Positions 10,950 to 54,824 are shown, counted from the stretch's first letter. The stretch is 64,000 nt of DNA from an uncultured Desulfarculaceae bacterium (GCA_964414345.1 CAYPWF010000009.1:5321-69320); one strand, 5' to 3'. The notes: generated by a model not told the origin, from the letters alone. Made by a program: numbers and translations.

Positions 10950-11142
10950 TTGCCCAAGATTATTCACCAGTAGTGGATAGTGCGGGCTATCATAATGACA
11001 TGCTTGGGCAAACCGTTCCATGCTCAAAAAAACCCTGATTCTTGGTTTCAGCTTTGCTCCTGGTTTGAGTCGAAATATGCCAAAGCTTGAGCAGGGGCTT
11101 GAGCCCATAAAGTCACAGGCTTTGGAGAATAATCCGGGCTAG
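10950..11142 (+). mobile_element. Family-1 MITE-like repeat, copy A
   Basis: Homologous to copies at 28998, 45531, 48185, 53296, 54714; ends TGCCCAAGATTATTC ... GAATAATCCGGGCTAG are imperfect inverted repeats. Confidence 0.75.
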
Positions 11143-11146
11143 AGGA

Positions 11147-12277
11147 TCACGCCCATACGCCCGGGATCTGAAAACCACAGAATCCGCACCGAGCTTCCCG
11201 CAGGTTCTTACTCAGAATCCCGAATCCCTTTCGGGAGATCACAACCTGGTTGCATGCTGGGCAGCGGGTGTTCTCATCTCTGTGCCCCGGCACGTTCCCT
11301 ATGTAAACAAAGTTCAATCCTTCCTCTTTCCCTATGGCTGCACATCTCTCCAAGGTGGCCACCGGCGTGGGAGGCAGATCCTGCATTTTGTAAGCCGGAT
11401 GGAACCTAGTGAAATGCAAGGGCACATCCGGAGAGAGCTCTTCCCGGATCCACTTGACCATTTCCCTGATCTCGGCAGGCTTATCATTCTGTCCTGGCAC
11501 TATCAAGACAACTATCTCAGTCCAGATCTTCCAGCGCTTGAGTCTAATGAGCGTCTCCTTGACCGGTTTCAGCTCCCCCCTGCAGATCTCTTTGTAGAAC
11601 CTTTCGGTGAAAGCCTTAAGGTCCACCTTCACCGCCGCCACATGATCGCACAGTCGCCTCAGAGGTTCCTCATTTATGTAACCATTGGTTACCACTACTG
11701 ATCGAACTCCTTCTTTTTGCCCCACAACAGCCGTATCAAACATGTATTCATAGAAGCTCACAGGCTCCGAGTAAGTATAGGCTATGCTTTGGCAAGAGGT
11801 TTCCTTGGCTCTTCTGACCACCTCTTCCGGGGGTAGGAAGGCTGATCTGACCTGCTCTGGCCTGAATTGGGCGATCTGCCAGTTTTGACAGAACTGGCAT
11901 TCTATGTTGCAACCCGCAGCAGCAATGGAGAAGGAGAAACTGCCCGGGAGGAAGTGAAAAAAAGGCTTTTTCTCTATGGGGTCTACATGAACCGCGCAGG
12001 CTCTGGAGTGCACCAGGGTATAGTAACGGCCTCCCCGATTTTCCTTGTTCCCGCAAAAACCCCTTTCCTGGTCAGCGATACGGCACTTTCGTGGACAAAC
12101 CTGGCACTCCACCCTGTCCCCATCCAAGCTCTGGTAAAACATCACCTCCACCAATTCCTCTCCAGCTGAAGGCTGAAGAGCCCTGCAATTTTTTGGAAGC
12201 GCTGTGGAGGCTAGGGCACAGGCCCCCGCCAACAAAACCCCCGCAAACTCCCTGCGGCAAAGCGAATTCTCCTGCAT
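11147..12277 (-). CDS. AmmeMemoRadiSam-system radical SAM enzyme (AmrS-like) with twin-arginine-like N-terminus
   Basis: VECQVCPRKC, GFCG, DPIEKKPFFHF, CNIECQFCQNW (CxxxCxxC), YTYSEP, RFHPAY, CPAC; N-terminus RREF plus hydrophobic stretch. Confidence 0.9.
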   Translation of the reverse strand: MQENSLCRREFAGVLLAGACALASTALPKNCRALQPSAGEELVEVMFYQSLDGDRVECQVCPRKCRIADQERGFCGNKENRGGRYYTLVHSRACAVHVDPIEKKPFFHFLPGSFSFSIAAAGCNIECQFCQNWQIAQFRPEQVRSAFLPPEEVVRRAKETSCQSIAYTYSEPVSFYEYMFDTAVVGQKEGVRSVVVTNGYINEEPLRRLCDHVAAVKVDLKAFTERFYKEICRGELKPVKETLIRLKRWKIWTEIVVLIVPGQNDKPAEIREMVKWIREELSPDVPLHFTRFHPAYKMQDLPPTPVATLERCAAIGKEEGLNFVYIGNVPGHRDENTRCPACNQVVISRKGFGILSKNLREARCGFCGFQIPGVWA

Positions 12278-12639
12278 GAGAGCCTCCTAGCCCAAACTCT
12301 CCCTTAAGACCGACGCTATTGGGGAGCAAACCCCGAAGGCCCGGTTTATTTTGCCATTCCCGGATCCAATCTTGGGCCGGGCTGGGGATGTAAGATCAGA
12401 GTTTTCTTTGGCCATGAATCACTTTGGCAATATGGAGAAGTTATCCTGCACTGTAAACCAGCTGTACATAGTGCAGACACAGCTTCCATAATAATAACAT
12501 GGGAAGGCCTGCCACAGTTCCACTTGGTGGTCCGCTAAAAGGATCTGATGAGCCGATGGGCTTTTATTCCTGGTGAGCCCTGCTGTTTGGGAAACTCTGG
12601 GGCAGCTCGCACTGGCCCTCTTTAGGAATAACTCGGTTC

Positions 12640-12667
12640 AAGCACCCGGCTTTTTCCCCGGGTGCTT
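12640..12667. terminator. Stem-loop downstream of the FmdB-family gene
   Basis: AAGCACCCGG / CCGGGTGCTT perfect 10-bp stem; no clear U-tract on the minus strand. Confidence 0.4.
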
Positions 12668-12687
12668 CAAGAAGAATGGCTCCTGAA

Positions 12688-12960
12688 TCAATTTTTCTTT
12701 TCAGATGCCGAGTCCTTGGAGGAATCCTTCTCGGACTTGGATGCCGAGGAGCCTTGGGAAGAACTCGAGGCAGAAGCTCCTTTACGGGCGTAATCCGTTG
12801 CGTACCAGCCTGTTCCTTTAAGCACAAAAGAAGTGTTTGAAATAAGGCGTTGGAGCACACCGCCGCAGGAAGGACATGACTCCAGGGGATTCTCGGTGAT
12901 CTTCTGCATTACCTCCAAATCCTTTCCACAGTCCTGGCACCTATACTCGTAGATGGGCAT
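12688..12960 (-). CDS. FmdB-family zinc-ribbon protein
   Basis: [12 protein letters not shown]...[27 protein letters not shown] plus Ser/Lys-rich tail. Confidence 0.92.
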
Positions 12961-13091
12961 TACCTCACCCCCCTCTCTTTAACTTATCCCGGGATCCCTT
13001 ATCCCGCTTTGATTCCAAACATCCGGGCCGGCTTGCTCTCCTTGCCCATGTGTTAAAAATATAATCTTTTTGGCCTCCAAGGCAACCCCTC

Positions 13092-16000
13092 TCAACGGGC
13101 TCCATATGGCGCCTCAGGCTCTGGAGGTAGCTCTCCTGGTGGACCCAAGTCTCCAAAAGGATTTTGGAAAAGCCTAAGGAACATTTCCATCACGGTCTGC
13201 CCCAAAGAACGAAAAGGCACGGCATTCACCTCTGGCTGATCCAGCGGGCCGGTCACCAGGAAGTAGGTGGCCAGGACGGTTCGCTTGGGACCTGCCAAAT
13301 AATGACGGATTATGGGAAGCTTGTCCACAAATCTGTCCACTCCTACGAAAGGCTGTACCCCCACCTTCAGGTCGCACTGCCTGGTTCTAAGATCAATATC
13401 CCCCACCATGGTGATCACCACGGCTTCGCTTTCCACACGCAAGTCCTCTGTTCTGAGCACCCCCTGGTCCAGCTGGAAGGTGCCTCGAATGCTCTTGAAC
13501 ACCATTCCTTCAGAAGACAAGTCGGGAAGCCTCCCGGTAAAGAGCTGACTCAGGTTCATCATGGAAAGTACGCTGGCCAAGACAGGGAACCGTCTCATTA
13601 AGCCTTTTTCTATCTCCAGATTCAGCATCCCACGATAACGACTGGGTGGATCATTGTTTGTGCCGCCTTGGATGTCCACTTTGATCCCCAGGGTTCCCTC
13701 TATAAGGGCTTCTTTAAGACCCAATGCTGCAAAGAACTCAGCTGAGCGGGCCCCCTTAAGGGTTCCTTTTAGGCTCCACATGCCCTCTGGGTTCAGGTTT
13801 CCTTCCATGGAGACCTCTCCGCCTGCCAGATGACCAACATAGCCCTCCAGGGAAATCCCATGGCCTTTTTTCAACATCCTGGCCTGCACCCCTGTGAAGT
13901 CCAATCCCAGAAACTTCATGCTCCTAAAGGCCAGGCCCATCTGGGACTCCTCAAGCTTGTCTATCCACTCTTTGAGTCTCTTACCGGATTCAGATCCCTT
14001 CTCCCCACTGTTGTTTCCCGACCTGCGGGCCAAAAATCCATCCAGATCCAGTGCCTCTCCCCTAAGCCCCCCCTTTATCTTGAATTTCTGCTCTTGCGCA
14101 GCCTGGATGGAGCCGGAAAAGGTGAGCTGCTGAGATTCCATTTCAATTTGGGCTGACTCGGCTGTGATGCCGGTTGGATTGAGCTGGAAACGACCCGAGC
14201 GAATCAACAAGGAACTTCCTGCCACTTCTTGGGAGATTCTCACTTCCCTGGCGCTTATGTTGGCATCCCAGGAAATGGATTCTTTAGATCTGACACGCCC
14301 TTTTATCTCCACCTCTCCCCCTTCCAGCTTTCCCCTTAAAACCGGCCAATGTTTGACCAGCTCATCTGTGGGACATGGAGCAAGCTGGAAGTTCCAGAGG
14401 CCTACCTCCCCTGACCCGGAGCTGCTTATGAGCATGTATGCCACTCCATACCGTGCCCGCGCCTCTTGCAAATTCCACTCGCCTCCCAGGCTGCCCTCCA
14501 GGACCAATTCCACATCCAAAGGCTCTCCCAAGGGCTTCTCCCAAAGCTCCTTGTAAACCAGCTCCGTTGGGGAGAGGTCTGCCTGAAGCCTTGCAGTTGC
14601 CTCCTGCAAATAGCCCTGGATGGAGAAATCCAAAGGCAGGTTCTCTGCTTTTACTATTTCCATACCGGGGAGGATTTGAAGAAAAGCCGCTTGCAGAAGT
14701 TCGGAGGGAATTCCCATTTTCCCCTTCAAGGAAAGGTTCGGTCGCTCATCTCCCCAGTTCTGCATGGAACCGGCCGCCTCCCACCAGGAGCCGCTCCAGG
14801 TGCCCTTTAAGGATCCTATCTCAACTTTCTTGGGAGTGGCCGTAATTTCCCCTGAATCCACCTTCCACGGGGGAGGGACCCCAGGCAGTTCACCCCAGGC
14901 CCCATTTATTCGAATCTTGGCCTCGTAATAAAGAGGATCCTTGCGCAAGAAGGCCTTGCGGAGGGTCAGATCAAGAACCGAACTTCCCTCCACCTTAGAA
15001 AGCAAAGCACCCTTTGCTCTTGATGGTGCAACCGCGGAGAAAAGCTCTTCCAGTTCAGGCCAAGCCAGCTCCAAGGAGAAACTCCCCTCCAGGAGCGAAA
15101 CCCTTCCGATCTCTGTTATACGGGCTTCCATGCCTATGAAAGCACGGTTTCTGTATTGAGCTTTGAGATTCTTGAACCAGACCCTGTCGCCTTGCCACAC
15201 CAAGGTCCCGGCCAAATTCTCCAAGGGAGGCAGGCGAGGGTCAAAACGCAGGGAGGCCTCCTCGAATTCAAGCTCCATTACAAGTCTGTTTGCTCCCCCG
15301 TTGGAGCCTTGATCCTCGGGTAAAAGCCTGAAGACCGCCCCCTTTCCCTCCCCTCCTAGGAGTTCTTCCCTGAAAAAGCCGTAAAGTGCCGGCCCTATAA
15401 GCTCGCGGTCCAAATAAGGTATGACTTTTCGGAAGGAAAAAGATCCTGCGCGAACAAAGCCCGTCAAACCATGGACAGAATTGCTTAGCTGTCCCTCCAA
15501 AGACAGCTCCTGGCTTTTAATCCTGCCTTCCTGAATGCTCCAGTAACCCCGCTCCCAGATCCCTTTGGCATGGGCTTTGAGCTGCTTGGCCTCAAAAGGA
15601 ATCTCCAGCACCTTGGGCCAGTTCACTCTTAGCTCTTTTGCCTCGAGGTATCCATCCCAGAGAAGTTGCCCGTTGGATCCCCTTTGGAGCTCCACACGCA
15701 GCCCGGCCTTTCCAACCACCCGATCCGCCTCCTGTGGCGGCAGCAAAAGCCCACTCAGTTCCTCCAAGGAGACGGACTCACATTCCAAAAGGGCCTTTCC
15801 CGAACCACTAGGCTCCAGCCTTCCCCTGAACTGAACCGGCCAATTTTGAGTCCCTGCCCTCATGTCTCCCTTGAGCCAGAAGTCCAGGGTCTGGCCTTCT
15901 TCCCCCATGTGGAGATCAGCCGTAATGTTCTGCAATACCAAGAGTTTTTCACCGGCAAAAACCCATCTCAGTGTAGAGTTACGTAATTTTATATGGCCCA

Positions 16001-16427
16001 GCCTCTGGAGCCCTGCCTCGCTCTTTCCTTGCTCCAGGAGCAGAAGCTCTGGTTGGTCCATTTCCAATCCATCCAGGATCATGGAGCGAAGGAGCACTTG
16101 GCCCGCCAGCAGATCCTTCCAGCGCAGCTCCACCGCCACCTGGGGAATCACCAAGACGTTGCCTCCCGAGGGGCTCTCCAATGTGAGCCCCCTGCCCCTG
16201 ATTTCCACCAGAGAGAGGCTTGCAAGCTCAAGGTACTCCAGCCTGGCCACATAACCCGTGGCGCGTTCAATCTCCTTACAAATCGCCGCCTTCACGTCTT
16301 GGCTATCCAGAATTCTTGGGAGCCAGATCCATCTGACCGAGACAAGCAGGCTCAAAAGGAGAAAAATTGCAAGAGTGAAGATTAGAAACTTTCTTGGTTT
16401 TCCTGTTAAGCTCAAGCCTTCCTCCAA
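13092..16427 (-). CDS. AsmA-like/YhdP-like envelope bridge protein
   Basis: N-terminal TM, long beta-rich body, C-terminal AsmA_2-like segment (FKSIRGTFQLDQGVLRTEDL, YFLVTGPLDQPEV). Confidence 0.8.
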   Translation of the reverse strand: MEEGLSLTGKPRKFLIFTLAIFLLLSLLVSVRWIWLPRILDSQDVKAAICKEIERATGYVARLEYLELASLSLVEIRGRGLTLESPSGGNVLVIPQVAVELRWKDLLAGQVLLRSMILDGLEMDQPELLLLEQGKSEAGLQRLGHIKLRNSTLRWVFAGEKLLVLQNITADLHMGEEGQTLDFWLKGDMRAGTQNWPVQFRGRLEPSGSGKALLECESVSLEELSGLLLPPQEADRVVGKAGLRVELQRGSNGQLLWDGYLEAKELRVNWPKVLEIPFEAKQLKAHAKGIWERGYWSIQEGRIKSQELSLEGQLSNSVHGLTGFVRAGSFSFRKVIPYLDRELIGPALYGFFREELLGGEGKGAVFRLLPEDQGSNGGANRLVMELEFEEASLRFDPRLPPLENLAGTLVWQGDRVWFKNLKAQYRNRAFIGMEARITEIGRVSLLEGSFSLELAWPELEELFSAVAPSRAKGALLSKVEGSSVLDLTLRKAFLRKDPLYYEAKIRINGAWGELPGVPPPWKVDSGEITATPKKVEIGSLKGTWSGSWWEAAGSMQNWGDERPNLSLKGKMGIPSELLQAAFLQILPGMEIVKAENLPLDFSIQGYLQEATARLQADLSPTELVYKELWEKPLGEPLDVELVLEGSLGGEWNLQEARARYGVAYMLISSSGSGEVGLWNFQLAPCPTDELVKHWPVLRGKLEGGEVEIKGRVRSKESISWDANISAREVRISQEVAGSSLLIRSGRFQLNPTGITAESAQIEMESQQLTFSGSIQAAQEQKFKIKGGLRGEALDLDGFLARRSGNNSGEKGSESGKRLKEWIDKLEESQMGLAFRSMKFLGLDFTGVQARMLKKGHGISLEGYVGHLAGGEVSMEGNLNPEGMWSLKGTLKGARSAEFFAALGLKEALIEGTLGIKVDIQGGTNNDPPSRYRGMLNLEIEKGLMRRFPVLASVLSMMNLSQLFTGRLPDLSSEGMVFKSIRGTFQLDQGVLRTEDLRVESEAVVITMVGDIDLRTRQCDLKVGVQPFVGVDRFVDKLPIIRHYLAGPKRTVLATYFLVTGPLDQPEVNAVPFRSLGQTVMEMFLRLFQNPFGDLGPPGELPPEPEAPYGAR

Positions 16428-16719
16428 GGCCCGGCTGAGCGTGAGCCTTTTTGAAAATATTATTTAGTATAAGCCCAAGCCGAATTGGGCACAAACAGTC
16501 TCAAGTGCATTTAACTTCATCAAAACCCGGGGGCCCCTGTGATAGAATGAAAGCAGAAGTGTCTCCACGATCAATAGGTGGAAGCCCTGGGAGCCGGATT
16601 CTTAACCTCATGCTTTTGGCAGGGTATTCGGGGCTGAACGCAACTTGGTTGATTCACTGGGAGTCCTAAAGCGTCATTTCTTCTGAACAAGCAGCATAGG
16701 CTTTGCCTGGAGGGCGCAT

Positions 16720-19713
16720 ATGAGGACGCACTATTCTCCCTGGGAGGAAGAGGTCCGGGAATTGGGCAAGACCATCTTCCTCAAGATGGGCGAGGAAAAA
16801 CCTTCTCTTTTCAGAAGGGACTATTGGATCGGCAGAATGCTTGAGTGGTGCATGGAGCATCCTTCTTTCAAGGTGCAGATGTTTAGACTTGTGGATGTGC
16901 TTCCTGCGCTTCGCTCCTCCAGACAAGTGGGACAGCATCTCAAGGAATACCTCATTCAACCGGAGGTGGAGCTTCCCCCCATGCTCCAGTGGCTTGTGAC
17001 CTCACTGGCCTCTAATCCTGTGACAGCACCTTTGGCTGCCCAGCAGACACGCAGGAACGTGGAAGAAATAGCAAAACGCTTCATTGTGGGGAGCACCCCC
17101 TCAGAAGCCTTGGATTTGCTTCGCCATGGCTGGAACCGTGGCATAGCCTTCACATTGGACCTTCTTGGCGAGGTAGCGGTGAGTGAACAGGAGGCCCTGC
17201 AGTATCAGAGTCGGTATCTGGAGCTTTTCCAGGTTCTAGGCCCCCGGATAGGAAAGTGGCCCGCCACTGATATTGAGAGGGAAAAGCATTTCCCCAGATT
17301 GAGTGTCTCCCTGAAATTGTCCTCACTTTTCTCCCAGATGGATCCTGCTGATTTTGGCGGCTCGGTCTCGGCACTGAAGGAAAGGCTAAGACCTATTTTC
17401 AGGCAAGCTCATGAGCATGGAGGCTTTGTGAACATTGACATGGAGCAATTCGCCTTTCTGGAGCTCACCCTGGCCACTTTCAAGAGCCTTCTGGAAGAGG
17501 AGGAATTCCGTGCAGCTCCGGCAGCCGGAATAGTCATTCAGACTTATCTGAGGGATTACAAGGAGCATTTGCAGGAGCTGATCCAGTGGGCCCGGGAGAG
17601 ATCCAGACCAATAACAATCCGCTTGGTCAAGGGGGCGTACTGGGACTACGAACAGGTGGTGGCCAGATGGAACGGCTGGCCTGTACCGGTTTTCCTCCAA
17701 AAAGGGGAGACAGATGCGGCCTTCGAAGAGGCCACCCGAATCTGCCTGGCAGCATATCCTTTGGTTAAGACCGCCATTGCAACCCACAATGTGAGATCCA
17801 TAGCCCATGGAGTAGTTGCTGCAAGACATCTGGGGTTAGAGGAGCATGCTGTTGAAATACAGATGCTTTACGGAATGGCTGAGCCGGTCAAGAAAGCCAT
17901 GCTGGAACTGGGGTTGCCCCTTTGTGAATACTGCCCCATAGGAGAGCTATTGCCCGGCATGGCATACCTTGTCCGGCGGCTTCTGGAAAACACCTCCAAT
18001 GAATCCTTTCTAAGGAAAAGCTTTGCAGAGGGAGTGGATCAGGAGGAACTCCTCTCGGCTCCGAAGAGCTTGGAGGAGCCCTCCCCTCAAGCCGCTTCCA
18101 AGGCTGCTTGGCCGGGATCTTACGGGCTGGAACCTCCAAGGGATTTCGGGAAAGCCCTCTTTAGGGAGAACTTTGAAAAGGCGATTCTGAGTGCAGGACG
18201 AGAGTTGGGGGAAACCCATCCCCTCTGGGTTGATGGCAAGAAACTCACAACCTCTAGGGAGCTTCTCTCGGTGAATCCAGCGCGACCTTCTCAGGTGGTG
18301 GGTCGCACCTTCCTGGCCAACCGGGAGGAAGCGGAAAAAGCCGTGACAGCAGCTTACAAGGCTCTTGAGCATTGGAGGGAAACCCCCGTCCAAAAGCGGG
18401 CCAGATTGGTGATGCGGGTGGGTGAAATCTTGCGTTCCAGAAGGGATAAGCTGGCAGCCCTTCAGGTGTATGAAGTCTCCAAGACCTGGAGGGAAGCTGA
18501 TGCGGATGTGTGCGAGGCCATAGATTTCTGTGAGTATTACTCTAGGGAGATGCTCAGGATGGCCACCCCCCGGAAAATGGATCCCATGCCCGGCGAAACG
18601 AACGATTACTTCTACGAACCAAGGGGAGTGGTCTTGATTATTGCACCCTGGAATTTCCCTTTGGCCATATCAACAGGTATGAGCATGGCAGCCCTCGTTG
18701 CGGGCAACCCGGTCATTTACAAGCCCTCCAGCCTTTCTCCCGTAACAGGGGCAGCTCTGGCAGAGGCGGTTCGGGAGGCCGGTTTCCCAAAGGGGGTTTT
18801 CCACTTTCTCCCCTGTACCGGTGGCGAGACAGCCGCCTGGCTGGTGGAACACCCCAAGGTGGCCCTCATTGCGTTTACAGGCTCAAAAGAGGTGGGGCTG
18901 GAAATAGTTCAAAGAGCCGCGACTGTAAAACCCGGGCAAGAAATGCTCAAGAGAGCTGTGGTGGAGATGGGCGGCAAGAACGCCATCATAGTTGATGCAG
19001 ATGCCGACCTGGATGCCGCAGTCCTGGGAGTGGTGCAGTCTGCCTTCGGGTTTCAGGGCCAGAAGTGCTCCGCCTGTTCCCGTGTAATAGTCCTTCAGGA
19101 GCAGTACGAGCGGTTTGTGCAGAGGCTGGTGGAGGCCACAAGGAGCATCAAAGTGGGAGATCCCCTCCACCCCTCGGTTGGGATGGGCGCAGTAATAGAT
19201 TTACAAGCCATGAAACGCATTTTGGATTACATTGAGTTGGGCAGGGAAGAAGGGGAACTGCTTTTCCAGGGGGATGCACCCCAAGAGGGTTATTTCGTGG
19301 GACCCACTATTTTTGCCCGAATCCCTCCCCAACACAAGCTGGCCCAGGAGGAGATCTTCGGGCCCGTGCTTTGTGTGATGGAGGCCGAAGACCTGGAGCA
19401 GGCTCTGGAGGTAGCAAATGCAACTCCTTATGCCCTAACTGGTGGTTTTTACTCTCGAAGCCCAGGCAACATAGAGAAGGTAAAGCAGAATTTCAGGGTG
19501 GGGAACTTGTACATAAACAGGAAGATCACGGGGGCGATTGTGGGCCGTCAACCCTTTGGGGGATTCAAGATGTCCGGAATAGGCTCCAAGGCAGGAGGTC
19601 CAGATTATCTCCTACAGTTCATGGAGCCGCGAACAATCACTGAGAACACCTTGAGGAGAGGTTTTGCCCCTGAATTGGAAACTGGCCCTAGCTGGCCAAC
19701 AGCTTTGGCTTGA
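16720..19713 (+). CDS. putA: Bifunctional proline dehydrogenase / P5C dehydrogenase
   Basis: FTLDLLGE, VNIDMEQ, IRLVKGAYWD, ATHN, QMLYGM, RRLLENTSN; ALDH half EMGGKNA, GQKCSACSR, EEIFGP. Confidence 0.96.
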   Translation: MRTHYSPWEEEVRELGKTIFLKMGEEKPSLFRRDYWIGRMLEWCMEHPSFKVQMFRLVDVLPALRSSRQVGQHLKEYLIQPEVELPPMLQWLVTSLASNPVTAPLAAQQTRRNVEEIAKRFIVGSTPSEALDLLRHGWNRGIAFTLDLLGEVAVSEQEALQYQSRYLELFQVLGPRIGKWPATDIEREKHFPRLSVSLKLSSLFSQMDPADFGGSVSALKERLRPIFRQAHEHGGFVNIDMEQFAFLELTLATFKSLLEEEEFRAAPAAGIVIQTYLRDYKEHLQELIQWARERSRPITIRLVKGAYWDYEQVVARWNGWPVPVFLQKGETDAAFEEATRICLAAYPLVKTAIATHNVRSIAHGVVAARHLGLEEHAVEIQMLYGMAEPVKKAMLELGLPLCEYCPIGELLPGMAYLVRRLLENTSNESFLRKSFAEGVDQEELLSAPKSLEEPSPQAASKAAWPGSYGLEPPRDFGKALFRENFEKAILSAGRELGETHPLWVDGKKLTTSRELLSVNPARPSQVVGRTFLANREEAEKAVTAAYKALEHWRETPVQKRARLVMRVGEILRSRRDKLAALQVYEVSKTWREADADVCEAIDFCEYYSREMLRMATPRKMDPMPGETNDYFYEPRGVVLIIAPWNFPLAISTGMSMAALVAGNPVIYKPSSLSPVTGAALAEAVREAGFPKGVFHFLPCTGGETAAWLVEHPKVALIAFTGSKEVGLEIVQRAATVKPGQEMLKRAVVEMGGKNAIIVDADADLDAAVLGVVQSAFGFQGQKCSACSRVIVLQEQYERFVQRLVEATRSIKVGDPLHPSVGMGAVIDLQAMKRILDYIELGREEGELLFQGDAPQEGYFVGPTIFARIPPQHKLAQEEIFGPVLCVMEAEDLEQALEVANATPYALTGGFYSRSPGNIEKVKQNFRVGNLYINRKITGAIVGRQPFGGFKMSGIGSKAGGPDYLLQFMEPRTITENTLRRGFAPELETGPSWPTALA

Positions 19714-19764
19714 GGTTTTTTGGGAGAGCTCGCGCTATGGGGAAGCCTCTGCCGTATGAAGGCC

Positions 19765-20954: not shown

Positions 20955-21015
20955 GGTATGCTCCTTTTCCGACTTATCTTGCACTGCATAAGGGGCGGCA
21001 AGTAACATATCGTAC

Positions 21016-22992: not shown

Positions 22993-23020
22993 AGCTTGAA
23001 CCACGAACTGGAAAAGAGAA

Positions 23021-23283: not shown

Positions 23284-23460
23284 TTGGGGGGGTGACGGCC
23301 CACCCAGCAATGAATTATTCTATCCAAATGGGCTTGCCCCTCTCCTTTGGCCCAAACGAGCCTTTGACAGGTCATGGGAGTTGGGAGGCGGAACTCCCCA
23401 TGGATCAGCTCATGGTCTTTGATGGCTGGCGCCTTGGGGGGTTGCGTTTTGAGGGTAGTT

Positions 23461-23670
23461 GGTCACGGGGGTGATGGCATTTCTCTTTGCTTCAAGCCCT
23501 CGGCGCTTGATTTTCCAAAGGATTTGGTCTCCGGGGGATATTTGCCCCCTCCCTCGGTCGCCCTCAGCTTAGCTTCGGGCCAGAGGGTTTCCCCCAGGTC
23601 CAAATACTGGAAAATCAAAGCGGATCTGCCAAGCCGCTCCGAGAAACGGAATCATCCTGTGATCGCTTAC
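23461..23670 (+). repeat. Family-2 long-hairpin repeat, full copy 1
   Basis: Ungapped match to the reverse complement of 39601-39810, 190/210 by hand count; nested inverted repeats. Confidence 0.85.
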
Positions 23671-23763
23671 CTTTGAGGTGTAGAGAAACCGATTATATTT
23701 GGCTTGCGGGGGAAACCCGCCTTTAGGTTTTTTTTCATTCCAAGCCAAGGAGATCGTTTTTTT

Positions 23764-28718: not shown

Positions 28719-28997
28719 GGCAAACCTCCTGTTTGTGGGATGAGAAAAAGCGGGTGCAAGCGGGCCAATGAATGAAACCAGCTCCGCCTAAGCTTCTGGC
28801 ACAAGAATAGAGACAGCTCACTTCAAAAGTCAAGCCGCTTGGGATGACAAATTGAGCTCGGCTTCGGCTTAACAAGTCGTTTTATGCTGGAAAAAACATA
28901 ATTTCTTCTTTTCATGCTTGGTGTCTTCAAGGCAAAGGATAGAATTGTTGCAAAATTTATGGGCTTACCTTTGTTTATGGATGATCTATTTAACGAT

Positions 28998-29195
28998 TAG
29001 CACGTATTATTCACGAGTAATGGATGATGCAGGCTATCTTAATGACATATCTGGAGAAATCGGTCCATGCTCAAAAGCAGCCTGCTTTTGGGTTCCAGAG
29101 TTTATATTGCTTTGAGTCGGAATATGTCGAAGTGCACCGGGGGCTGGGGGGCTTGAGCCCCCAAAGTCAGCGGCTTTGGAGAATATCCTGGTTAG
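28998..29195 (+). mobile_element. Family-1 MITE-like repeat, copy B
   Basis: TAGCACGTATTATTCACGAG...GCAGGCTATC...GGGGGCTTGAGCCCCCAAAGTC...GGCTTTGGAGAATATCCTGGTTAG. Confidence 0.75.
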
Positions 29196-34183: not shown

Positions 34184-34361
34184 GGAAGGAGCCGCTATCT
34201 CCTCTTGGGGTCAGACTTAACCCCCATTATTGCCCTAAAAGGGATTGGCGCGGGGGCTGCACCCCCCCCCACCCGGCATATTTGGCCACATTCTGGCTCA
34301 GCCGCTGGTGGGACCTGGAACGCAAACTCAGAGTGTCTTGGACCATGAGTCATGGAATCCC

Positions 34362-34370
34362 ATTATATCA
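34362..34370 (-). promoter_or_regulatory. Extended -10 promoter element upstream of the kinase operon
   Basis: TGATATAAT on the minus strand. Confidence 0.4.
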
Positions 34371-34423
34371 ACAGGTTAGCCTGCATTGAGCATTCCCCTT
34401 GAAAAATGCAATTTGGCCGCTTC

Positions 34424-35677: not shown

Positions 35678-35682
35678 TCTCC

Positions 35683-39600: not shown

Positions 39601-39810
39601 GTAATCGATCCCAGGGTGATGGCGTTTCTCGGAGCGGCTTGGCGGAGGCGCTTTGATTTTCCAGGATTTGGACCTGGGGGAAACCCTCTCGCCCGAAGCC
39701 AAGCTGAGGGCGACCGAGGGAGGGGGCAAGTATCCCCCGGTGGCCAAATCCTTTGGCAAATCAAGCGCCGAAGACTTGAAGCGGAGAGAAATGCCGTCAC
39801 CCCCGTGACC
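39601..39810 (-). repeat. Family-2 long-hairpin repeat, full copy 2, inside the rho leader
   Basis: 190/210 identical to 23461-23670; terminal arms GGGTGATGGCGTTTCTC / GAGAAATGCCGTCACCC. Confidence 0.85.
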
Positions 39811-39992
39811 AGCTTTAACTTCATACCAGGTTCTCCTCCCAGAAAGCTGAAGCTCTCGAGTCCTTCTGCAGAGGCTTCCAAATGGATCTTTGTGGGTGAG
39901 CATCTAACCTGAATGGTGCACTCTCTGGGAGACGAATCCTTAAGAGACGATACTTATCCTACCTTAGGCAGGTTGAATACAAGAACACCTCT

Positions 39993-42871: not shown

Positions 42872-42909
42872 GAGGTCTTTTCCCTCAAAGAAGTCTTTGC
42901 CGGCTGGCT

Positions 42910-43656: not shown

Positions 43657-43701
43657 CCTTCCCTCCGGACCTTAGCTGAACCCAAATTCTCCACAGTTTC
43701 C

Positions 43702-45470: not shown

Positions 45471-45530
45471 GAGCCTATATCCCAAAACAAGATTCCCTCT
45501 TTCCCAAGGATCCCCAAGCTCTTCTTGAAC

Positions 45531-45704
45531 CGCCCGAGATTCTGTGCCGGATGCCCAAGCCCCTGATACGCTTTGGGGTATCCCCACCAATACCAGGGGC
45601 GAATCTGAAACCCAAGATAAGGGTCTTGCTCAAAAGGACCTATTTATCTCAACATGCCATCCAGATAACCTGCATTATCAACTGCTCGTGAGTAATGTGC
45701 GCCA
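45531..45704 (-). mobile_element. Family-1 MITE-like repeat, copy D (partly deleted), between the two permease genes
   Basis: Reverse complement reads ATTACTCACGAGCAGTTGATAATGCAGGTTATCT...CCTTATCTTGGGTTTCAGATT...GGGATACCCCAAAGCGTATC. Confidence 0.7.
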
Positions 45705-45755
45705 AAAAACCCACCCCAAAAGCTCTGATCCTCTGGTACAGCCCAACCGCCAGCC

Positions 45756-46628: not shown

Positions 46629-46681
46629 TGACAGCGCAGAGGCCTCCTGTGCCTTCTCTCAATATGGCGTTCACACAATCA

Positions 46682-47959: not shown

Positions 47960-48184
47960 CTGCCGCCTCCTTGAAATTGAATGGGGCACCGAACCCGCTG
48001 AATGTCCTTTTTCCAAGAACACCATCTGGGCGGTCTTGTCCAAGGGCGGGCAAGGACAAGAAAACAAAACTCTCGCTGCCAACCCAAGACTTCCTTACAG
48101 GGCCTGATATGATCCATGGCTTCAAGGATGGGGCTTACTTTACCTGTGGAATCATATTTGTGTCAAGGCAAAATCCAAGACACC

Positions 48185-48372
48185 GGCCCGGATTGTTCCC
48201 CAAAGCCTGTGACTTTGGGGGCTCAAGCCCCCAAACCCCCGATACGCTTTGGGGTATCCCTACTCATGCCAAAGCCAAATCTGCAACCCAAGATAAGGGT
48301 CTTTCTTGGCAGGAACCCCTTTATCCCAACACATAATCTAGATAGCCTGCATCATCCACTGATCGTGAAAAA
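48185..48372 (-). mobile_element. Family-1 MITE-like repeat, copy E
   Basis: GCCCGGATTGTTCCCCAAAGCCTGTGACTTTGGGGGCTCAAGCCCCC...GATAGCCTGCATCATCCACTGATCGTGAA. Confidence 0.75.
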
Positions 48373-48405
48373 GCCTCCAGGGAATCCCTTGGGGTTTGTA
48401 GAGGA

Positions 48406-50937
48406 CTAGCTGGAATCCTTCCTTAGCGAGATACTGCGGTTGGTCAGGTAAGTCCTAACTCGCAGATCAGAGCCGTCTGTCTCAAGGCTCACCATTCCAT
48501 CCTCCCCTGTATGGAGGATCTCTGCACCCAGTTCTTTGTATCTCTGCAGAATTTCTGGATGCACCAGGCCCCTTTCACCTGCCTTTGAGGAGAAGATCAC
48601 AATACTCGGCATGACTCTTTTTAAGAACTCCCCGGTGCTGGAAGTTTTGCTGCCATGATGAGGAGCTAGAAGAACCGTGGAGGCAAGATCATGCTTTTCC
48701 AACAGCAGCGTCTCTGCCTCGGCCTCAAGGTCCCCAGGAAGCAGCACAGAGACCTGCCCCATACTGACCCTCAAGACCAGTGAGCGGTTGTTGGTCTCAG
48801 AAGCCCTGCTTTTGGACTTAAGTGAAAAGCCCCCACAAGGAGGATGCAAGACCTCCAGCCTGGCTTGGCCAATGCCCCAGCTCTCTCCAGAGCAAAGTGC
48901 CCTGGGCCTCCATCCCGTGGCTTGAACGGCTTTGAGGAACTCCAAGTATTGGGGATCATTGGGGCGATGCCCGTTGTCCCATACTCCATCTTTAACCTTG
49001 AAGGCACGCAGGATGAAGAGCAGTCCTCCTAGGTGGTCTGGGTGGGGATGGCTGAGGATCACCCTGTTCAAACTCATGATCCTTCTCTCCCACAATACAG
49101 GAGCCACTTGCATTGCTCCCACATCCGGACGGCCTTCCAAATTCCCTCCCCCGTCTAAAAGAAGGCTCTCTCCTCCGGGAGCCTGTATCAAGACCGAAGT
49201 GCCGTTTCCAACGGCTATGAAATGAAGCCTCAACTCCGGATCGCGGAGTTTGGCAACCCCCTCATATGCCCAAAGCACCACCAGCAAGAAAACCAACCCC
49301 AGCGTGGCCCGGGCAGCCCATCTGGACTTTCCAAAAGAGCAAAGTCCAATGCAGATGAGGTAATAGATAACTATCTCCCAAGCCCTTGGGGTGGGAAGAT
49401 AGATGACTCCTCCTATTGAGGCTGCCCAAAGAATCATTTTCACAGCCCAATCAGCCATCCAGGCAGCCACCCAGAGCAAGGCCAGCCCAACGCTCTCCCA
49501 GCTCAGGTACAAAAAGCTTCCCAAAAGAGCCATGGGAAGCACAACCCAACCCACTAACGGAACTCCCACGAGGTTTGCCGGGATGCCCAAAAGAGGAAAC
49601 ATATGAAATCGCATTACCACCAAAGGCATGGTGGCCAAAGAGGCGGCAAGGGTGGTGGCTGCAGCCAGCAAGGCCCTCCTACCCCAGCTGTGCAGTGCTT
49701 TTCTCTTGCCTGGGAGTAATTCTTGATTTCCTCTTGGTAGATAAGACATGAGTTTAGGTGCTACATACAAGATGCCCATTACGGCCAGGAAGGAAAGCTG
49801 GAAAGAAAGTTCAAAAATGCAAGAGGGGTTCAAAACCAGAATGATTAGGGCGGCCAAGGCCAAGGCATGATAGAGCCTTCTTGTCCTGTCCAAAATGAGT
49901 GCAGCCGCCAAAGCCAAGACCATTATCAGGGAACGTTGCACAGAAGGAGCCATTCCGGCCACTGTCCCATAAACCAGCAATACCGGCACGGTGATAAGCC
50001 AGGCCAGCTTTTGTACGGGGAACCTGAGCACAAGCCACGCCCACAGGCTTAGCAGTTTTAGGGAAACCCAGTAAACGCAGAGAGCCACCAGGCCGAAATG
50101 CAAACCGCTTATGGCCAGGAGATGAGACAAGCCGAGAGTCGCAAAAGCATCGCGCAGTTGGCTCGGCAAGGCTCCTGCCTGGCCCACAACCAAGGCCAGA
50201 ATTACCTCCCTGGAGGGACTTGGGAATTCCGCACTAATCACCCGGGTGAGATCCCAACGCAAATCCTCCATTTTCTGCCTGGCCCAATGGCCTCGGCCCC
50301 TTTCCATTAGAAGCATATGCTCTGCATCCGGAAGAAATCCAAGGAACCCGACACCTTGCAAAGCCAATACACGGGCCCTGTCCAAGGTGCCGGGATTCAG
50401 CCGAGGCTCCGCAACACGCAGAAACGTCTTTAACCTGAGTCTGTCCCCGTATCGGAATTGATCCCCGCCTTTTTCTATGTTCAGAAACATCCTACCTCGG
50501 ATTTCCTTGGCCTCAGAACCCTGGAAGAGCGTTTCCAGTTCCAAAAGGAGCCTTGTTCCGTCCAGTCTTAGCTCAGGGGACCTTATGAGGGTACCTTCCA
50601 AATCACAAAGTTCGGCTCCACAAAATCCCAAGGGATCTTCTTGGGGAAGGCTCTTGAGCCCCACTCGCTGCCCGTGCCAGGCTCCAAGAGTCAGGAAAAC
50701 CAAAATCGCCAGAATCCTTTGTCCGGCAAGCCACTTGCCTTTCCACATAAAGGGAATCCAAAGCCCCAAAAGAACAAAACATGGGAAAGGCCACAGCTCT
50801 TGCACGGGCAAAAGCTTCCCTAGTAGGATTCCATTGGCAAAGGCCAGCACCAGGATCGGGAAGAGGTAAACGCCCAGCAACAGAGGTTCCCCTGTCTTGG
50901 TGACTTGGTAAGCAACCGGAAGGCCTTGGGGGATCAT
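48406..50937 (-). CDS. comEC: DNA internalization competence protein ComEC/Rec2
   Basis: DUF4131-like region, SHLLAISGLHFG, FQLSFLA, metallo-beta-lactamase SHPHPDHLGG, LLPGD, HHGSKTSS. Confidence 0.94.
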   Translation of the reverse strand: MIPQGLPVAYQVTKTGEPLLLGVYLFPILVLAFANGILLGKLLPVQELWPFPCFVLLGLWIPFMWKGKWLAGQRILAILVFLTLGAWHGQRVGLKSLPQEDPLGFCGAELCDLEGTLIRSPELRLDGTRLLLELETLFQGSEAKEIRGRMFLNIEKGGDQFRYGDRLRLKTFLRVAEPRLNPGTLDRARVLALQGVGFLGFLPDAEHMLLMERGRGHWARQKMEDLRWDLTRVISAEFPSPSREVILALVVGQAGALPSQLRDAFATLGLSHLLAISGLHFGLVALCVYWVSLKLLSLWAWLVLRFPVQKLAWLITVPVLLVYGTVAGMAPSVQRSLIMVLALAAALILDRTRRLYHALALAALIILVLNPSCIFELSFQLSFLAVMGILYVAPKLMSYLPRGNQELLPGKRKALHSWGRRALLAAATTLAASLATMPLVVMRFHMFPLLGIPANLVGVPLVGWVVLPMALLGSFLYLSWESVGLALLWVAAWMADWAVKMILWAASIGGVIYLPTPRAWEIVIYYLICIGLCSFGKSRWAARATLGLVFLLVVLWAYEGVAKLRDPELRLHFIAVGNGTSVLIQAPGGESLLLDGGGNLEGRPDVGAMQVAPVLWERRIMSLNRVILSHPHPDHLGGLLFILRAFKVKDGVWDNGHRPNDPQYLEFLKAVQATGWRPRALCSGESWGIGQARLEVLHPPCGGFSLKSKSRASETNNRSLVLRVSMGQVSVLLPGDLEAEAETLLLEKHDLASTVLLAPHHGSKTSSTGEFLKRVMPSIVIFSSKAGERGLVHPEILQRYKELGAEILHTGEDGMVSLETDGSDLRVRTYLTNRSISLRKDSS

Positions 50938-51164
50938 AGCCGGGCTGCGTCCCCTGTCAAGCGAAAATAGGAAAGTGGCTGCTCTTTACTGGAGATCACC
51001 TCTGGTGTATTTTCTGGTAGCCTCCAGACCCCCCGGCTGGGAAAGATTCTTTTTCCCCCTGCTGGGGGAACTCACGGCCGGGCGAGTGAAGGGATGTAAG
51101 CTTTCTGTCAGGTGCTTCTTTTGTTAGACAAAGTATTATGTTGGGGAGACAAAAGCCTTTGAAA

Positions 51165-51911
51165 ATGAAAGCAGTGGGAAAGACCCACGTGGGTCGAGTG
51201 CGGGGCAATAACGAGGACTTTTTTTGCATAGACGAAGAGCTGGGGCTTTTTCTGGTTGCCGACGGAATGGGAGGCCATGCCTCAGGAGAAGTGGCCAGCC
51301 GCATGGCTGTGGAGATCCTTCACAAGGCCTACTCCAGTAACCGGGATAGAGATCCCCAGGGGGACGAGCCTTTTGAAATGGAAGAAAGGAGGCTGTTTGA
51401 GAACATCCAGCTGGCCAACAGGGCCATCCACGAGCTGTCTCTGAAAGAGCAAAATTACAGGGGAATGGGCACAACCCTGGCCGGCATCCTCCGCAAGCGG
51501 GACTCTTTGCTATGTTTCCACGTGGGAGATAGTCGTATATACAAACTGCACGAGGGATCACTTCTTCAATTGACAGAAGATCACTCTGTAGTGGCCCAAC
51601 AGGTGAAGATGGGTGTAATAACCCAGGAGCAGGCCCGCACATCAAGGATAAGGAACGTTATAACCAGGGCAATAGGAGTCCAATGGGACGTGGAAGCCGA
51701 CATCTCTGTTCAGGACATGCAGGAGGGGGATATTTACATGATTTGCACTGACGGCTTGTCAGACTTCGTTCCCTTGGAGACCCTGGAGAGGGTGCTTCTG
51801 GATCATGCTAGGGACCTAGAAGGAGCGGCCTTTCAACTGGTGGAAGAGGCCTTGGGAATGGGCGGACAGGATAATGTGACGGTTGTCCTGGTCAGGCTCG
51901 ATACAGAATGA
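51165..51911 (+). CDS. PP2C-family Ser/Thr phosphatase (Stp1/PrpC-like)
   Basis: GRVRGNNED, VADGMGGH, GMGTT, HVGDSR, RNVITRAIG, CTDGL, GGQDNVT. Confidence 0.94.
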   Translation: MKAVGKTHVGRVRGNNEDFFCIDEELGLFLVADGMGGHASGEVASRMAVEILHKAYSSNRDRDPQGDEPFEMEERRLFENIQLANRAIHELSLKEQNYRGMGTTLAGILRKRDSLLCFHVGDSRIYKLHEGSLLQLTEDHSVVAQQVKMGVITQEQARTSRIRNVITRAIGVQWDVEADISVQDMQEGDIYMICTDGLSDFVPLETLERVLLDHARDLEGAAFQLVEEALGMGGQDNVTVVLVRLDTE

Positions 51912-51970
51912 TCCCTAGGCCCTGGAGGTCTGTCCCATAGAAGTGAGAGGCAATGGGAGGTGATCTAGTC

Positions 51971-52642
51971 ATGGCCAGGTTGATAGTGAAATTCAGGGGG
52001 GCTGTTGTGCAGGAGCATCTTTTGGACAAACCCTCTGTGCGCATAGGCAGACGTGAAGGAAACGATATCAGGATAGACAATCTGGCGGTTTCGGGAAACC
52101 ACGCAAAAATAGAGAAGATAGACGGATCATATATAATCGTCGACCTCAAGAGCACAAATGGAACCTTCGTCAACAATAAGAAAATTGTCCAGGCCAAGCT
52201 GCGTCACTTGGATGAAATAATGATAGGAAAGCATGTCTTGATATTTGAGGACGAATCGCAGGTGGCGGAAGCCAGGGAAACAGATCTTCAGGAAGCCCAG
52301 GCAGAGGTGCCCCAGGAGCAATTGATTCAGAAACCCGCAGCAGAGTTCACTGGCAAACCAGCAGTGCTCAAGTTCTTGGAGCCCGCCCATCAGCCAGAGG
52401 TGATTCTTCAGAAAAAGCTTACGGTCATAGGCCGAAGGGAGGACGCTGAAGTAAGGCTTCGCGGGCTTTTTGAACCCAAGGTGGCTGCGATAATTGCCAG
52501 AAAACCCACTGGGTACTCTTTGCTCCCGGAAGGAAAGGTTAAGGTCCTCCTAAACGGTCAAGCGGTCTCCAGGCGCACGGATTTGAAAGATGGTGATGTA
52601 ATAGAGGTGGGTTCTCTTAGGCTTCTGTTCTCGGGAACCTGA
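51971..52642 (+). CDS. Tandem FHA-domain protein
   Basis: FHA1: IGR..NDI..VSGNHA..DLKSTNGTFVN; degenerate FHA2: IGR..LNGQ..LKDGDVIEVG. Confidence 0.88.
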   Translation: MARLIVKFRGAVVQEHLLDKPSVRIGRREGNDIRIDNLAVSGNHAKIEKIDGSYIIVDLKSTNGTFVNNKKIVQAKLRHLDEIMIGKHVLIFEDESQVAEARETDLQEAQAEVPQEQLIQKPAAEFTGKPAVLKFLEPAHQPEVILQKKLTVIGRREDAEVRLRGLFEPKVAAIIARKPTGYSLLPEGKVKVLLNGQAVSRRTDLKDGDVIEVGSLRLLFSGT

Positions 52643-52785
52643 TTCCTGCTAGGGGCAAGAGCAAGAAGGCCCTGGTGGCATCACATGTTGGGGGAGCTGG
52701 AAGCTCAAAGAACCCGGCCCGGGCCAGATCTTCAAGGGGCTTGACTTAATATTGGGCGCGATCCCATGGAACTGGTTTAGACCAT

Positions 52786-53265
52786 ATGGACGAAAACTCT
52801 GCAGCCAAGGAGTCCTTTGGTGAGTACCTGATGAGGGAGCGCACGTTGCGCAACATCCCTCTGGAAGAGATATCCCAGAGGACCAGGATATCGATGAAAG
52901 TGCTTCAGGCCTTGGAAGAGGAGCGTTGGGAAGAGCTGCCAGCAGATGTGTATGTTCGAGGTTTTCTTAGGACCTACTCCCGTTATCTGGGCCTTGATGA
53001 AAATGAGGTATTGGTGCGCTACGAGGACCAGCGTCCAGGAGCCGTTGCGCCTGTGAGAGATGTTTTTCAGGAGCTGGAAAAACCCAGAGCCAAGATCAGA
53101 AGGCTTTGGCTTGTCTTGCTACTTTTGGGCTGCGTTGCTTTTGCTCTTTATTGGTTTTGGGGACGCCCCTTGTTTTGGGGGGAGAGCACTCCCGCTAAGC
53201 CGGCCCCGCCAGGGCCCCATCTTCGTTCGCTTCCCATGCCTCCAGCTCCCCCGGCCGGAAATTGA
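52786..53265 (+). CDS. RodZ-like HTH membrane protein lacking the periplasmic domain
   Basis: SFGEYLMRERTLRNIPLEEIS..TRI..LQALEEE..LPADVYVRGFLRTYSRYLGLD, one TM segment, Pro-rich tail. Confidence 0.85.
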   Translation: MDENSAAKESFGEYLMRERTLRNIPLEEISQRTRISMKVLQALEEERWEELPADVYVRGFLRTYSRYLGLDENEVLVRYEDQRPGAVAPVRDVFQELEKPRAKIRRLWLVLLLLGCVAFALYWFWGRPLFWGESTPAKPAPPGPHLRSLPMPPAPPAGN

Positions 53266-53295
53266 GGTACCAGAAAAATGGCTGATGCACTTAAT

Positions 53296-53494
53296 CTAAC
53301 CTGACTTGTTCACGATCAGCTGGATAATGCAGGCTATCTTATTGACATATTTTGATAAACTGGTCAATACTCAAGAACCCCTGACTTTTGGTTTCAGGTT
53401 TTGCCCGGGGTTGAGTCGGAATATGTCGAGGTTTACCGGGGGTTTGGAGGTGTAGGCGCAGAAGTTCTAGCTTTGGAGAGTAATCCGGATCAAG
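53296..53494 (+). mobile_element. Family-1 MITE-like repeat, copy C
   Basis: CTAACCTGACTTGTTCACGATCAGCTGGATAATGCAGGCTATCTT...GAGTCGGAATATGTCGA...GCTTTGGAGAGTAATCCGG. Confidence 0.75.
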
Positions 53495-53644
53495 CCATCA
53501 TCATTTTTGGGGTTATTTCTTTTTGCGGCCGGCCTGAAGGTGGGTTTGAACATCTGGAACTGTACAAAACCTCTCCCCTGGGGTGGCCTTATTTGGTAAT
53601 TGACCAGGTTTTGGGCAGCAGGGACAAAGCTAGGGGATTCTTGA

Positions 53645-54613
53645 GTGATGCACCGCAAAAGGTGGAAAAAGCGGCTTAAGAGAGGGCCTGGGGCCTGGGC
53701 AGCATTTGTGGGCCTTGGTTGTCTTTATCTAGCTCTCCATCTGGTCTCCACAGACGCAATACCTGTCATAGGCCGCTGGGTGGGAGGGATGATGGCCTGT
53801 CTTGCCGGTCCCAGAAGACGCATTGCAATGAAAAACATAACTCTTGCCTTGGGCTCCTCTTTGGGTCTTGAAACAAGAAGGCGACTGGTCAAAAGGCTAA
53901 TCCAGGGACTGGGTCTTAACCTTGCAGAGCTAGGCCACCCAGGCTTCATGCAAATTGATTTTCTGCGAAAACGAGTGCCCATACAGGGTCTGGAGCATTT
54001 GGAAGAAGCCCTCTCTAAAGGCCGGGGAGCCATTCTGGCGAGCGCCCATTTTGGAAATTTTCCCCTCATATTGGCCAGGCTTGGCCTTGAAGGATATCAG
54101 GTGGGGGTTATCATAAGAGACCCCCGCCACAAGCCCGTTGCACGCTTTCTGGATCAATGGAGGGCCAGGTACAATGTGCGCACCCTCAGGGACAAGCCTA
54201 GATGGGCTTCAGTCAAGGAGGCTCTGGCCCTTCTTCGTCAAAATGGAATTCTGGTTGTGCATGTTGATCTAAATGTCTCGGAAGGGGGGCTTTTCGTGCC
54301 TTTTTTCGGCCATTGGGTGCCAACTTTCCGCGGTCCTGCCATGTTGGCCCTTCGCTCAGGCACTCCCTTGCTGCCCACCTTCATAAAGAGGCTCCAGGGC
54401 CTGGATCACAGGCTGAGTATCCACCCACCTGTTCAGGTTCAGCTTACTGGGAATCGGGATCAGGACACCTGGCAGATGCTTTTGGCATTAAACCAAGAAG
54501 CAGAGAAAACCATAAGGGAATATCCGGAGCAGTGGTGGTGGATACACAGGCGTTTTAGAAAGGCAAAGCCGGCCTCAGAGGTGGGGGGCCCCATCCCCCT
54601 TGAGTCCGCCTGA
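53645..54613 (+). CDS. LpxL/HtrB-family acyltransferase paralog with divergent catalytic motif
   Basis: SAHFGNFP, VPFFGHWVPT..GPAMLALRSG, QWWWIHRRFR. Confidence 0.85.
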   Translation: MMHRKRWKKRLKRGPGAWAAFVGLGCLYLALHLVSTDAIPVIGRWVGGMMACLAGPRRRIAMKNITLALGSSLGLETRRRLVKRLIQGLGLNLAELGHPGFMQIDFLRKRVPIQGLEHLEEALSKGRGAILASAHFGNFPLILARLGLEGYQVGVIIRDPRHKPVARFLDQWRARYNVRTLRDKPRWASVKEALALLRQNGILVVHVDLNVSEGGLFVPFFGHWVPTFRGPAMLALRSGTPLLPTFIKRLQGLDHRLSIHPPVQVQLTGNRDQDTWQMLLALNQEAEKTIREYPEQWWWIHRRFRKAKPASEVGGPIPLESA

Positions 54614-54713
54614 GCACGCAGGTTCCCCTGGAAGGACACCTTGTTCCGATCAACCAAGCCCCTCAGCCTTGGTGGTTTTGCCTTGCAACCCGCCAAGAAG
54701 TTCTTTTGTCTTG

Positions 54714-54824
54714 TTAACCTGTAATGTTCCCGATCAGTGGATAGTGCTGGCCAAACAAAGCGTGAGCGGGGGTCGGGGAGCTTGAACCCCAAGAGTTACA
54801 GGCTTTCGAGAATAGTCCGGGCTA
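54714..54824 (+). mobile_element. Family-1 repeat, internally deleted copy F
   Basis: 5' end (TTAACCTGTAATGTTCCCGATCAGTGGATAGTGC) fused to 3' end (GGCTTTCGAGAATAGTCCGGGCTA). Confidence 0.65.

Follow-up and report, generated by a model that had tools for sequence, protein, structure and literature searches.

The REPs of enterobacteria are palindromes of 20-40 nucleotides (nt) that have neither terminal inverted repeats nor a target duplication; their movement depends on RAYT (Y1) transposases. The duplication made by the Correia elements of Neisseria is TA, and promoter, IHF and RNase III sites have been documented in them. Chunjie of Geobacter uraniireducens and the QMITEs of Coxiella are transposable elements of the miniature inverted-repeat type (MITEs), 180-235 bp in size, with inverted and direct repeats, represented by dozens of full copies and many partial ones that are mostly intergenic (PMC10969869); the duplication made by QMITE2 is 7-9 bp long (PMC10969869). 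Among insertion sequences, IS711 duplicates TA within YTAR (PMC2266754), and for IS5 the documented signature is a duplication of 4 bp with the motif YTAR (PMC5009759). Here we describe a family of repeats of about 191 bp in a stretch of DNA from an uncultured Desulfarculaceae bacterium. The whole stretch, 64,000 nt long, is called the window, and the copies in it are referred to as c1 to c8, in window coordinates. We conclude, with a probability of about 0.9, that these repeats constitute a new family of MITEs with an IS5-like choice of target, and we leave the family of the parent transposon open.

Ends, target duplication and movement of the element

The anatomy of the element was read from an alignment of 60 distinct full-length copies with their 40-nt flanks, taken from the window and from related hot-spring metagenome contigs. 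The related loci were gathered with a 29-nt pattern taken from the element's 5' part, a choice that favors well-preserved copies; this pattern yielded 41 metagenome loci, in which a profile search finds about 100 copies, including back-to-back ones. Two nhmmer profiles were used, one built from the six copies listed in the first-pass annotation of the window and an improved one built from the 60 copies. The element proper, CCCGCATTATTC...GAATAATCCGGG, is about 191 bp long (191 bp in a young copy), and across the 60 copies conservation is abrupt at both boundaries, CCCGC... and ...CCGGG. The terminal inverted repeats are 12 bp long, CCCGCATTATTC and GAATAATCCGGG, and in the consensus of the 60 copies they match as inverted complements at 11 of 12 positions. 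The inverted-repeat ends proposed in the first-pass annotation are therefore present, but the sequence given for them, TAGCCCGGATTATTC (starting TAGCCCGG...), also covers three bases that belong to the target duplication. The terminal repeat occurs once more, inverted, at the 5' end, and as a result nt 1-39 (numbering starts at the TA of the 5' duplication) fold back into a perfect 17-bp hairpin. Towards the 3' end, at a distance of about 35 nt from it, there is a second hairpin, GGGGGC..GCCCCC.

Of the 60 copies, 23 are flanked by a perfect direct repeat of 4 bp and none by one of 5 bp. At flank positions 1 and 4 the two sides match directly in 42/60 and 44/60 copies, as against only 18 and 19 that match as inverted complements, and a value as high as the observed one did not arise in any of 10000 permutations. 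By composition the four flank positions are Y, T, A and R, with TTAG, CTAG and CTAA predominating, and the pairs observed include the non-palindromic ATAG/ATAG, CTAT/CTAT, CTAA/CTAA and TTAG/TTAG. The target duplication is therefore the 4-bp sequence YTAG/YTAR and not TA.

Comparison of filled and empty sites demonstrates that the element moves. One copy (L130:14239-14429) is 91% identical to the consensus, has CTAG on both sides and is present in a sister strain (runs X6/X7, JGI Ga0209381). In the window's own strain (run X1), its empty counterpart is found on a contig of 16.9 kb, in which position 14234 is joined to 14430; the empty site reads AGCCT / CTAG / CCTGTG, so that the element and one CTAG are missing, exact to the base. 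In a second pair, the filled site (L236:5708-5903) lies between recO and ispH in a relative with 82% amino-acid identity, and the window (56726-56846) and a further related locus, L234, are empty at a YTAT site. This pair is less clean, the 5' duplication in L236 having since mutated.

Two other modes of insertion were weighed against these data. The first-pass annotation had suggested a TA target as a possibility, which would make the element a MITE of the IS630/Tc1-mariner type that duplicates only TA within a CTAG-like target. TA is indeed the invariant center of the flanks, CTAG is a common flank and IS711, with its TA duplicated within YTAR, provides a precedent. If TA alone were duplicated, however, the base that follows the 5' TA and the one that precedes the 3' TA would be part of the element and should be inverted complements of one another, and this is contradicted by the excess of direct matches described above, by the pairs ATAG/ATAG, CTAT/CTAT and CTAA/CTAA and by the clean empty site, which keeps exactly one CTAG. 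The suggestion did not hold, and we regard this mode as very unlikely. Alternatively, the element might derive from a single-strand-DNA transposon, as a palindrome-associated element of the IS200/IS605 type, or be REP-like and mobilized by a Y1 (HUH) transposase; it would then be inserted just 3' of a fixed tetranucleotide on the lagging-strand template. The hairpins near both ends speak for this, and a strand bias such as the one reported in the next section is typical of these elements. Elements of these kinds lack terminal inverted repeats and target duplication, however, whereas here there is a 12-bp repeat, with 4-bp flanks that vary between copies and match within them, and no gene for a Y1 transposase, TnpB or RAYT turned up in the window. 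Such an origin seems to us most improbable.

The number of copies was estimated from the summed k-mer depth of contigs over a near-consensus copy relative to its unique flank, which gives rough values only. By this measure there are about 200-260 copies in the 4.04-Mb assembly of the sister strain; for the strain of the window, counting copies with at least 80% likeness, the estimate is about 65-90. The expectation of many more copies genome-wide, expressed when the repeats were first noticed, is thus confirmed. In the sister assembly, 452 contig pieces carry the element in a total of 1270 contigs. There are 96 profile hits in the approximately 336 kb of window and related sequence, in which a 21-nt pattern from the 3' part occurs 19 times, and the density of copies is about 1 per 15-60 kb. 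The family occupies about 1% of the 4-Mb genome of the sister strain and is a main cause of assembly breaks there.

Tandem or back-to-back copies occur at L120:3235-3621, L149:4362-4893 and L143:1962-2357. In L120 one TTAG is common to the two copies, which is what would result if the second had gone into the duplication produced by the first. Joints in run X7 at which the sequence goes back by about 190-200, of which there are several, show that there are further such arrays.

Individual copies are between 58 and 95% identical to the consensus. Those in the window are only 62-80% identical to it and must therefore be old, as had been proposed from their visible divergence. Copy c5 is orthologous to L236:2446-2639, with which it shares derived changes at the ends (CCT.., ..CCGGAT) as well as flanks, in a species whose acyltransferase is 82% identical; it therefore predates that species split. 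Copies c1, c3, c4, c7 and c8 are all common to the sister strain (about 95% DNA identity).

The window is 99.1-100% identical to JGI hot-spring metagenome contigs and to one Logan assembly, and the public runs that contain it are hot-spring and microbial-mat metagenomes. The closest species reference genomes are metagenome-assembled genomes (MAGs), one of a member of the Desulfarculaceae (acyltransferase 80%) and one labelled "Deltaproteobacteria" (GlyQ 81%). Because these closest matches reach only 80-81%, the lineage is poorly represented among reference genomes. Neither the 29-nt 5' pattern nor the 21-nt 3' pattern has a match in 185,579 reference species genomes, and an 18-nt degenerate pattern gave chance single matches only in the reference genomes. 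In the GlyQ/acyltransferase neighborhoods of about 85 other species (1.35 Mb), no copies were found except in the two closest relatives, together with one weak match in a Desulfarculaceae MAG (L237).

Setting, orientation and tests of function

In the related loci genes were delimited by simple, crude calls of open reading frames (ORFs). On this basis, there are 13 copies among the 60 for which an adjoining ORF, at least 100 codons long, has the duplicated TAG or TAA as its stop codon, on the 5' side in 7 cases and on the 3' side in 6. The density of YTAR sites in intergenic DNA is 1.8 times that in coding DNA, and insertions that fall within genes are presumably eliminated. The presence of TAG or TAA in the YTAR target largely explains the closeness of the copies to stop codons. 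Such a link accounts in simple mechanical terms for the position of some MITEs directly past the ends of genes.

The copies are distributed among spacers of all kinds, with 27 between genes on the same strand, 17 in convergent and 11 in divergent settings. Of the copies in the same-strand spacers, 23 run in the direction of transcription and 4 against it (p = 3e-4); when only spacers with a single copy are considered the numbers are 18 and 3. The co-orientation with the preceding gene that had been noted for the first few copies therefore holds in a larger sample. This bias is real. Unequal availability of TTAG and CTAA was considered as a cause and rejected, there being 35 and 29 such sites on the coding strand. 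Selection against one orientation at insertion, or coupling to the direction of replication, is a possible source. It has also been considered that co-orientation and landing at stop codons belong together, either because insertion is coupled to the direction of transcription or replication or because one orientation gives a useful RNA structure at the 3' end at the time of insertion, which later decays. We find this doubtful; if it were true, either cause would be unusual for a transposon with inverted repeats and a target duplication.

Two readings would assign a function to the individual copies. According to the first, the element is mainly a functional RNA module (a stabilizer of 3' untranslated regions, a terminator or a small RNA) that is maintained by selection, its spread being secondary; the first-pass annotation had likewise proposed that it may act on mRNA 3' ends. 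For the forward-strand consensus the fold is strong (-87.2 kcal/mol, z = -7.1, compared with -66.8 for the reverse strand), and the co-orientation with transcription between same-strand genes is in keeping with such a role. In addition, a 255-nt contig from a microbial-mat metatranscriptome is 100% identical to 53380-53634, which comprises the 3' half of c5 and the acyltransferase leader. However, this is a single contig of low depth that starts at a repeat-induced break shared with DNA assemblies, and at most it indicates that the region is transcribed. The fold, moreover, is not kept by the copies: paired cells make up 82.9% in the alignment and 82.4% in shuffles, with a covariation score of 0.130 in both, G-U cells do not exceed A-C cells appreciably (236 vs 211), and RNAalifold on 57 copies returns only a 7-bp stem with no covariation term. 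Copies c1 and c8 are 93.4% and 89.1% identical to their orthologs in the sister strain (L139), where other intergenic DNA is 90.9% identical, third codon positions 93.1% and first and second positions 98-99%. They diverge like intergenic and third-codon sites, and it follows that fixed copies drift neutrally. No match of the element to Rfam was found in the window at the gathering score, nor at E <= 1 on loci with near-consensus copies; scans of two near-consensus copies with promoter and terminator consensus sequences gave background levels. Finally, copies are located in divergent promoter regions (11) and convergent regions (17) as well, and not solely past stop codons. The proposed action on mRNA 3' ends is not supported by these data, and a functional RNA is in our view unlikely. 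According to the second reading, each copy encodes a small protein, the consensus containing a 47-codon ORF that runs from an ATG to a TAA within the 3' inverted repeat (model positions about 46-190). Most copies do keep an open frame of 44-65 codons; at least 47 open codons are retained in that frame in 23/57 copies (exactly 47 in 11 of these, 48 and 51 in one each, while the other 10 stay open up to where the copy ends), and the median longest open frame is 61 codons per copy. Substitutions are, however, spread evenly over the three codon positions (351, 354 and 335; p = 0.74), the ratio of synonymous to non-synonymous changes is equal in all three frames, a 1-nt indel between sub-families shifts the frame and the ATG is missing in 15 copies. 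With no codon-position bias and no synonymous excess this reading was rejected, and its probability is practically negligible.

In two of the related contigs (L109 and L110), ORFs of 36-92 amino acids have been called by JGI over copies of the element, and gene callers could mistake such frames for small genes. The consensus should aid assembly, binning and annotation, and it should keep the open frame and the hairpins from being called genes or small RNAs.

Copies in the window and neighboring features

The six copies listed in the first-pass annotation align with one another over about 190 nt at the positions given there, the shared blocks quoted for them are present and the six-copy profile recovers them with E values from 8e-58 to 6e-15. 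Each of the six is thereby confirmed as genuine, nhmmer giving overall E values of 1e-56 to 1e-11. With the 60-copy profile five of them are placed at 28997-29195 (+), 10951-11142 (+), 48184-48373 (-), 53296-53492 (+) and 45539-45705 (-), and two more diverged copies appear at 34218-34409 (-; E 1e-15) and 12288-12452 (-; E 4e-9), which brings the total to 8 copies in 64 kb. Every copy in the window is intergenic. The six listed originally lie 15-100 nt from a stop codon, within the limit of about 100 bp that had been noted, and five of these six have the same orientation as the gene that ends ahead of them, an observation also made at that time, the exception being the copy at 28998-29195, which is anti-oriented to hisD. 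The flanking genes are ordinary chromosomal ones (coaX, radical-SAM, YhdP-like, hisD, aroA, liv transporter, comEC, RodZ-like helix-turn-helix (HTH), lipid A acyltransferase and glyQ).

Copy c1 (10951-11142, +; E 1.7e-51) occupies the space between the stop of coaX (10923) and that of a convergent radical-SAM gene (11147); its 3' duplication, CTAG, is intact and its 5' end is degenerate. The diverged c8 (12288-12452, -; E 4.2e-9, model positions 31-199) is located about 11 nt upstream of the start of the radical-SAM gene (12277). Copy c2 (28997-29195, +; E 1e-56) lies between the start of an aldehyde:ferredoxin oxidoreductase gene (28718, -) and the stop of hisD (29220, -), in the orientation opposite to both, and its duplication looks like TTAG/TTAG if the 3' end has lost one base. 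The other diverged copy, c7 (34218-34409, -; E 1.1e-15), is found 15 nt past the stop of aroA (34424, -), upstream of a histidine kinase gene. Copy c3 (45519-45705, -; E 2e-45 with the six-copy profile and 6.7e-34 with the 60-copy profile) lies between two genes for branched-chain amino-acid permeases, with a degenerate 3' end and 62% identity to the consensus. Copy c4 (48184-48381, -; E 8e-58 and 3.3e-50 with the same two profiles) is situated about 25 nt past the stop of comEC (48406, -) and upstream of a periplasmic binding-protein gene. Copy c5 (53296-53492, +; E 3.1e-47), flanked by CTAA and TCAA, lies between the stop of the RodZ-like HTH gene (53265) and the start of the lipid A acyltransferase gene (53645).

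The remaining copy, c6 (54714-54824, +), lies between the stop of the acyltransferase gene (54613) and that of the convergent glyQ (54967). The nhmmer search aligned it in two segments, model positions 2-40 at 54714-54752 and 133-199 at 54756-54824, so that about 92 model positions are missing, in agreement with the internal deletion recognized earlier. The acyltransferase-glyQ spacer is also occupied in another species, by a copy at L234:10851-11032 (-) in the orientation opposite to that of c6, which suggests either independent insertions into one spacer or an inversion.

A weak nhmmer match at 10066-10101 (-; E 7e-4, model positions 6-41) is a candidate solo end-hairpin, consisting of inverted repeat, loop and inverted repeat, and begins at the TAA stop codon of valS. 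Clearer isolated units of this kind, 33-39 nt long, are present at L114:7145-7183 and L145:8591-8629, with a 5-nt loop and YTAR-like tetranucleotide flanks. These may be minimal mobile units, with the inner copy of the repeat serving as the right end, or remnants of deletions.

A second, unrelated repeat family is represented in the window by inverted copies of 214 nt at 23457-23670 and 39601-39814, which are 90% identical, and by a fragment at 54842-54899, after c6. The copy at 39601-39814 is absent from the sister-strain contig, where 222 nt are skipped and 9 letters fit both sides; this suggests a 9-bp target duplication. The summed depth of this family is about 20-25 times that of its flanks, and it appears to be a second, recently active MITE. 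The only Rfam match in the window is a cobalamin riboswitch at 63026-63242 (-; RF00174, 85.5 bits), upstream of a minus-strand cluster of periplasmic-binding/FecCD/ABC and ExbBD-TonB genes.

The parent transposon and comparison with known elements

No transposase was found in a Pfam scan of the 39 larger ORFs of the window or among the pre-annotated genes of the matching contig L109, all of which are housekeeping genes. For the window, this agrees with what had been read from the sequence at the outset, as does the description of the element as non-autonomous: it is mobile and non-coding, has inverted-repeat ends and lies with no transposase nearby. The family as a whole is short (under about 500 bp) and non-coding, with terminal inverted repeats, a target duplication and dispersed copies that differ in their presence or absence, as is characteristic of MITEs.

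We propose that the element is a non-coding derivative, about 191 bp long, of a cut-and-paste or copy-paste DNA transposon, and that a transposase acting in trans would bind the 12-bp repeats and make a 4-bp staggered cut at YTAR sites. The mechanism would be of the DDE type and the parent would be one with an IS5-like choice of target. Selection would then remove insertions within genes, leading to a build-up between genes, and the TAG or TAA in the target brings many insertions onto or beside a stop codon, the duplication restoring the stop. Copies, once fixed, decay neutrally. The family has long been active in a single thermophilic hot-spring lineage, to which the nearest reference genome is one labelled Desulfarculaceae.

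The 4-bp YTAR duplication fits the IS5 group. Several observations weigh against our interpretation or against a firm choice of parent. The ends of IS5-family elements usually start with G (GA/GG) and the present element starts with CCC, and IS1380, IS701 and ISH3 also make duplications of 4-5 bp; for these two reasons the parent family is left open. An autonomous partner did not come to light, since no parent insertion sequence was found beside orphan inverted repeats and no repeated protein-coding sequence was found among about 270 kb of distinct related loci. Finally, the orientation bias described above is not predicted for a symmetric inverted-repeat transposon that decays neutrally. Otherwise this is an ordinary MITE, of a new family, and not a new kind of biology.

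The element may be compared with four groups of known repeats. It differs from IS5-group MITEs in its CCC ends, the IS5 termini being rich in G, and in that no transposase with these ends was found. It shares with them the 4-bp YTAR duplication (CTAG, TTAG, CTAA; PMC5009759), short terminal inverted repeats, the absence of coding sequence and an intergenic location. Like the Correia elements (CREE) of Neisseria, it is a high-copy inverted-repeat element in the 100-200-bp range, intergenic near gene ends and without a known cognate transposase (PMC10969869), and the density of copies is comparable; it differs from them in its 4-bp duplication, in giving no detectable functional RNA or promoter signal and in sequence, which is unrelated. 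Chunjie and the QMITEs resemble it in size, in their conserved inverted repeats and direct repeats and in their mostly intergenic location, but they differ in sequence, host lineage and length of the duplication, and the present family has in addition the extra terminal hairpin formed by the inner repeat and the 33-39-nt solo hairpins. With the REP/BIME and ERIC sequences of enterobacteria it has in common that these are abundant, structured intergenic repeats, often located past genes in mRNA 3' regions; in contrast to the REPs, the element described here possesses inverted repeats and a 4-bp duplication.

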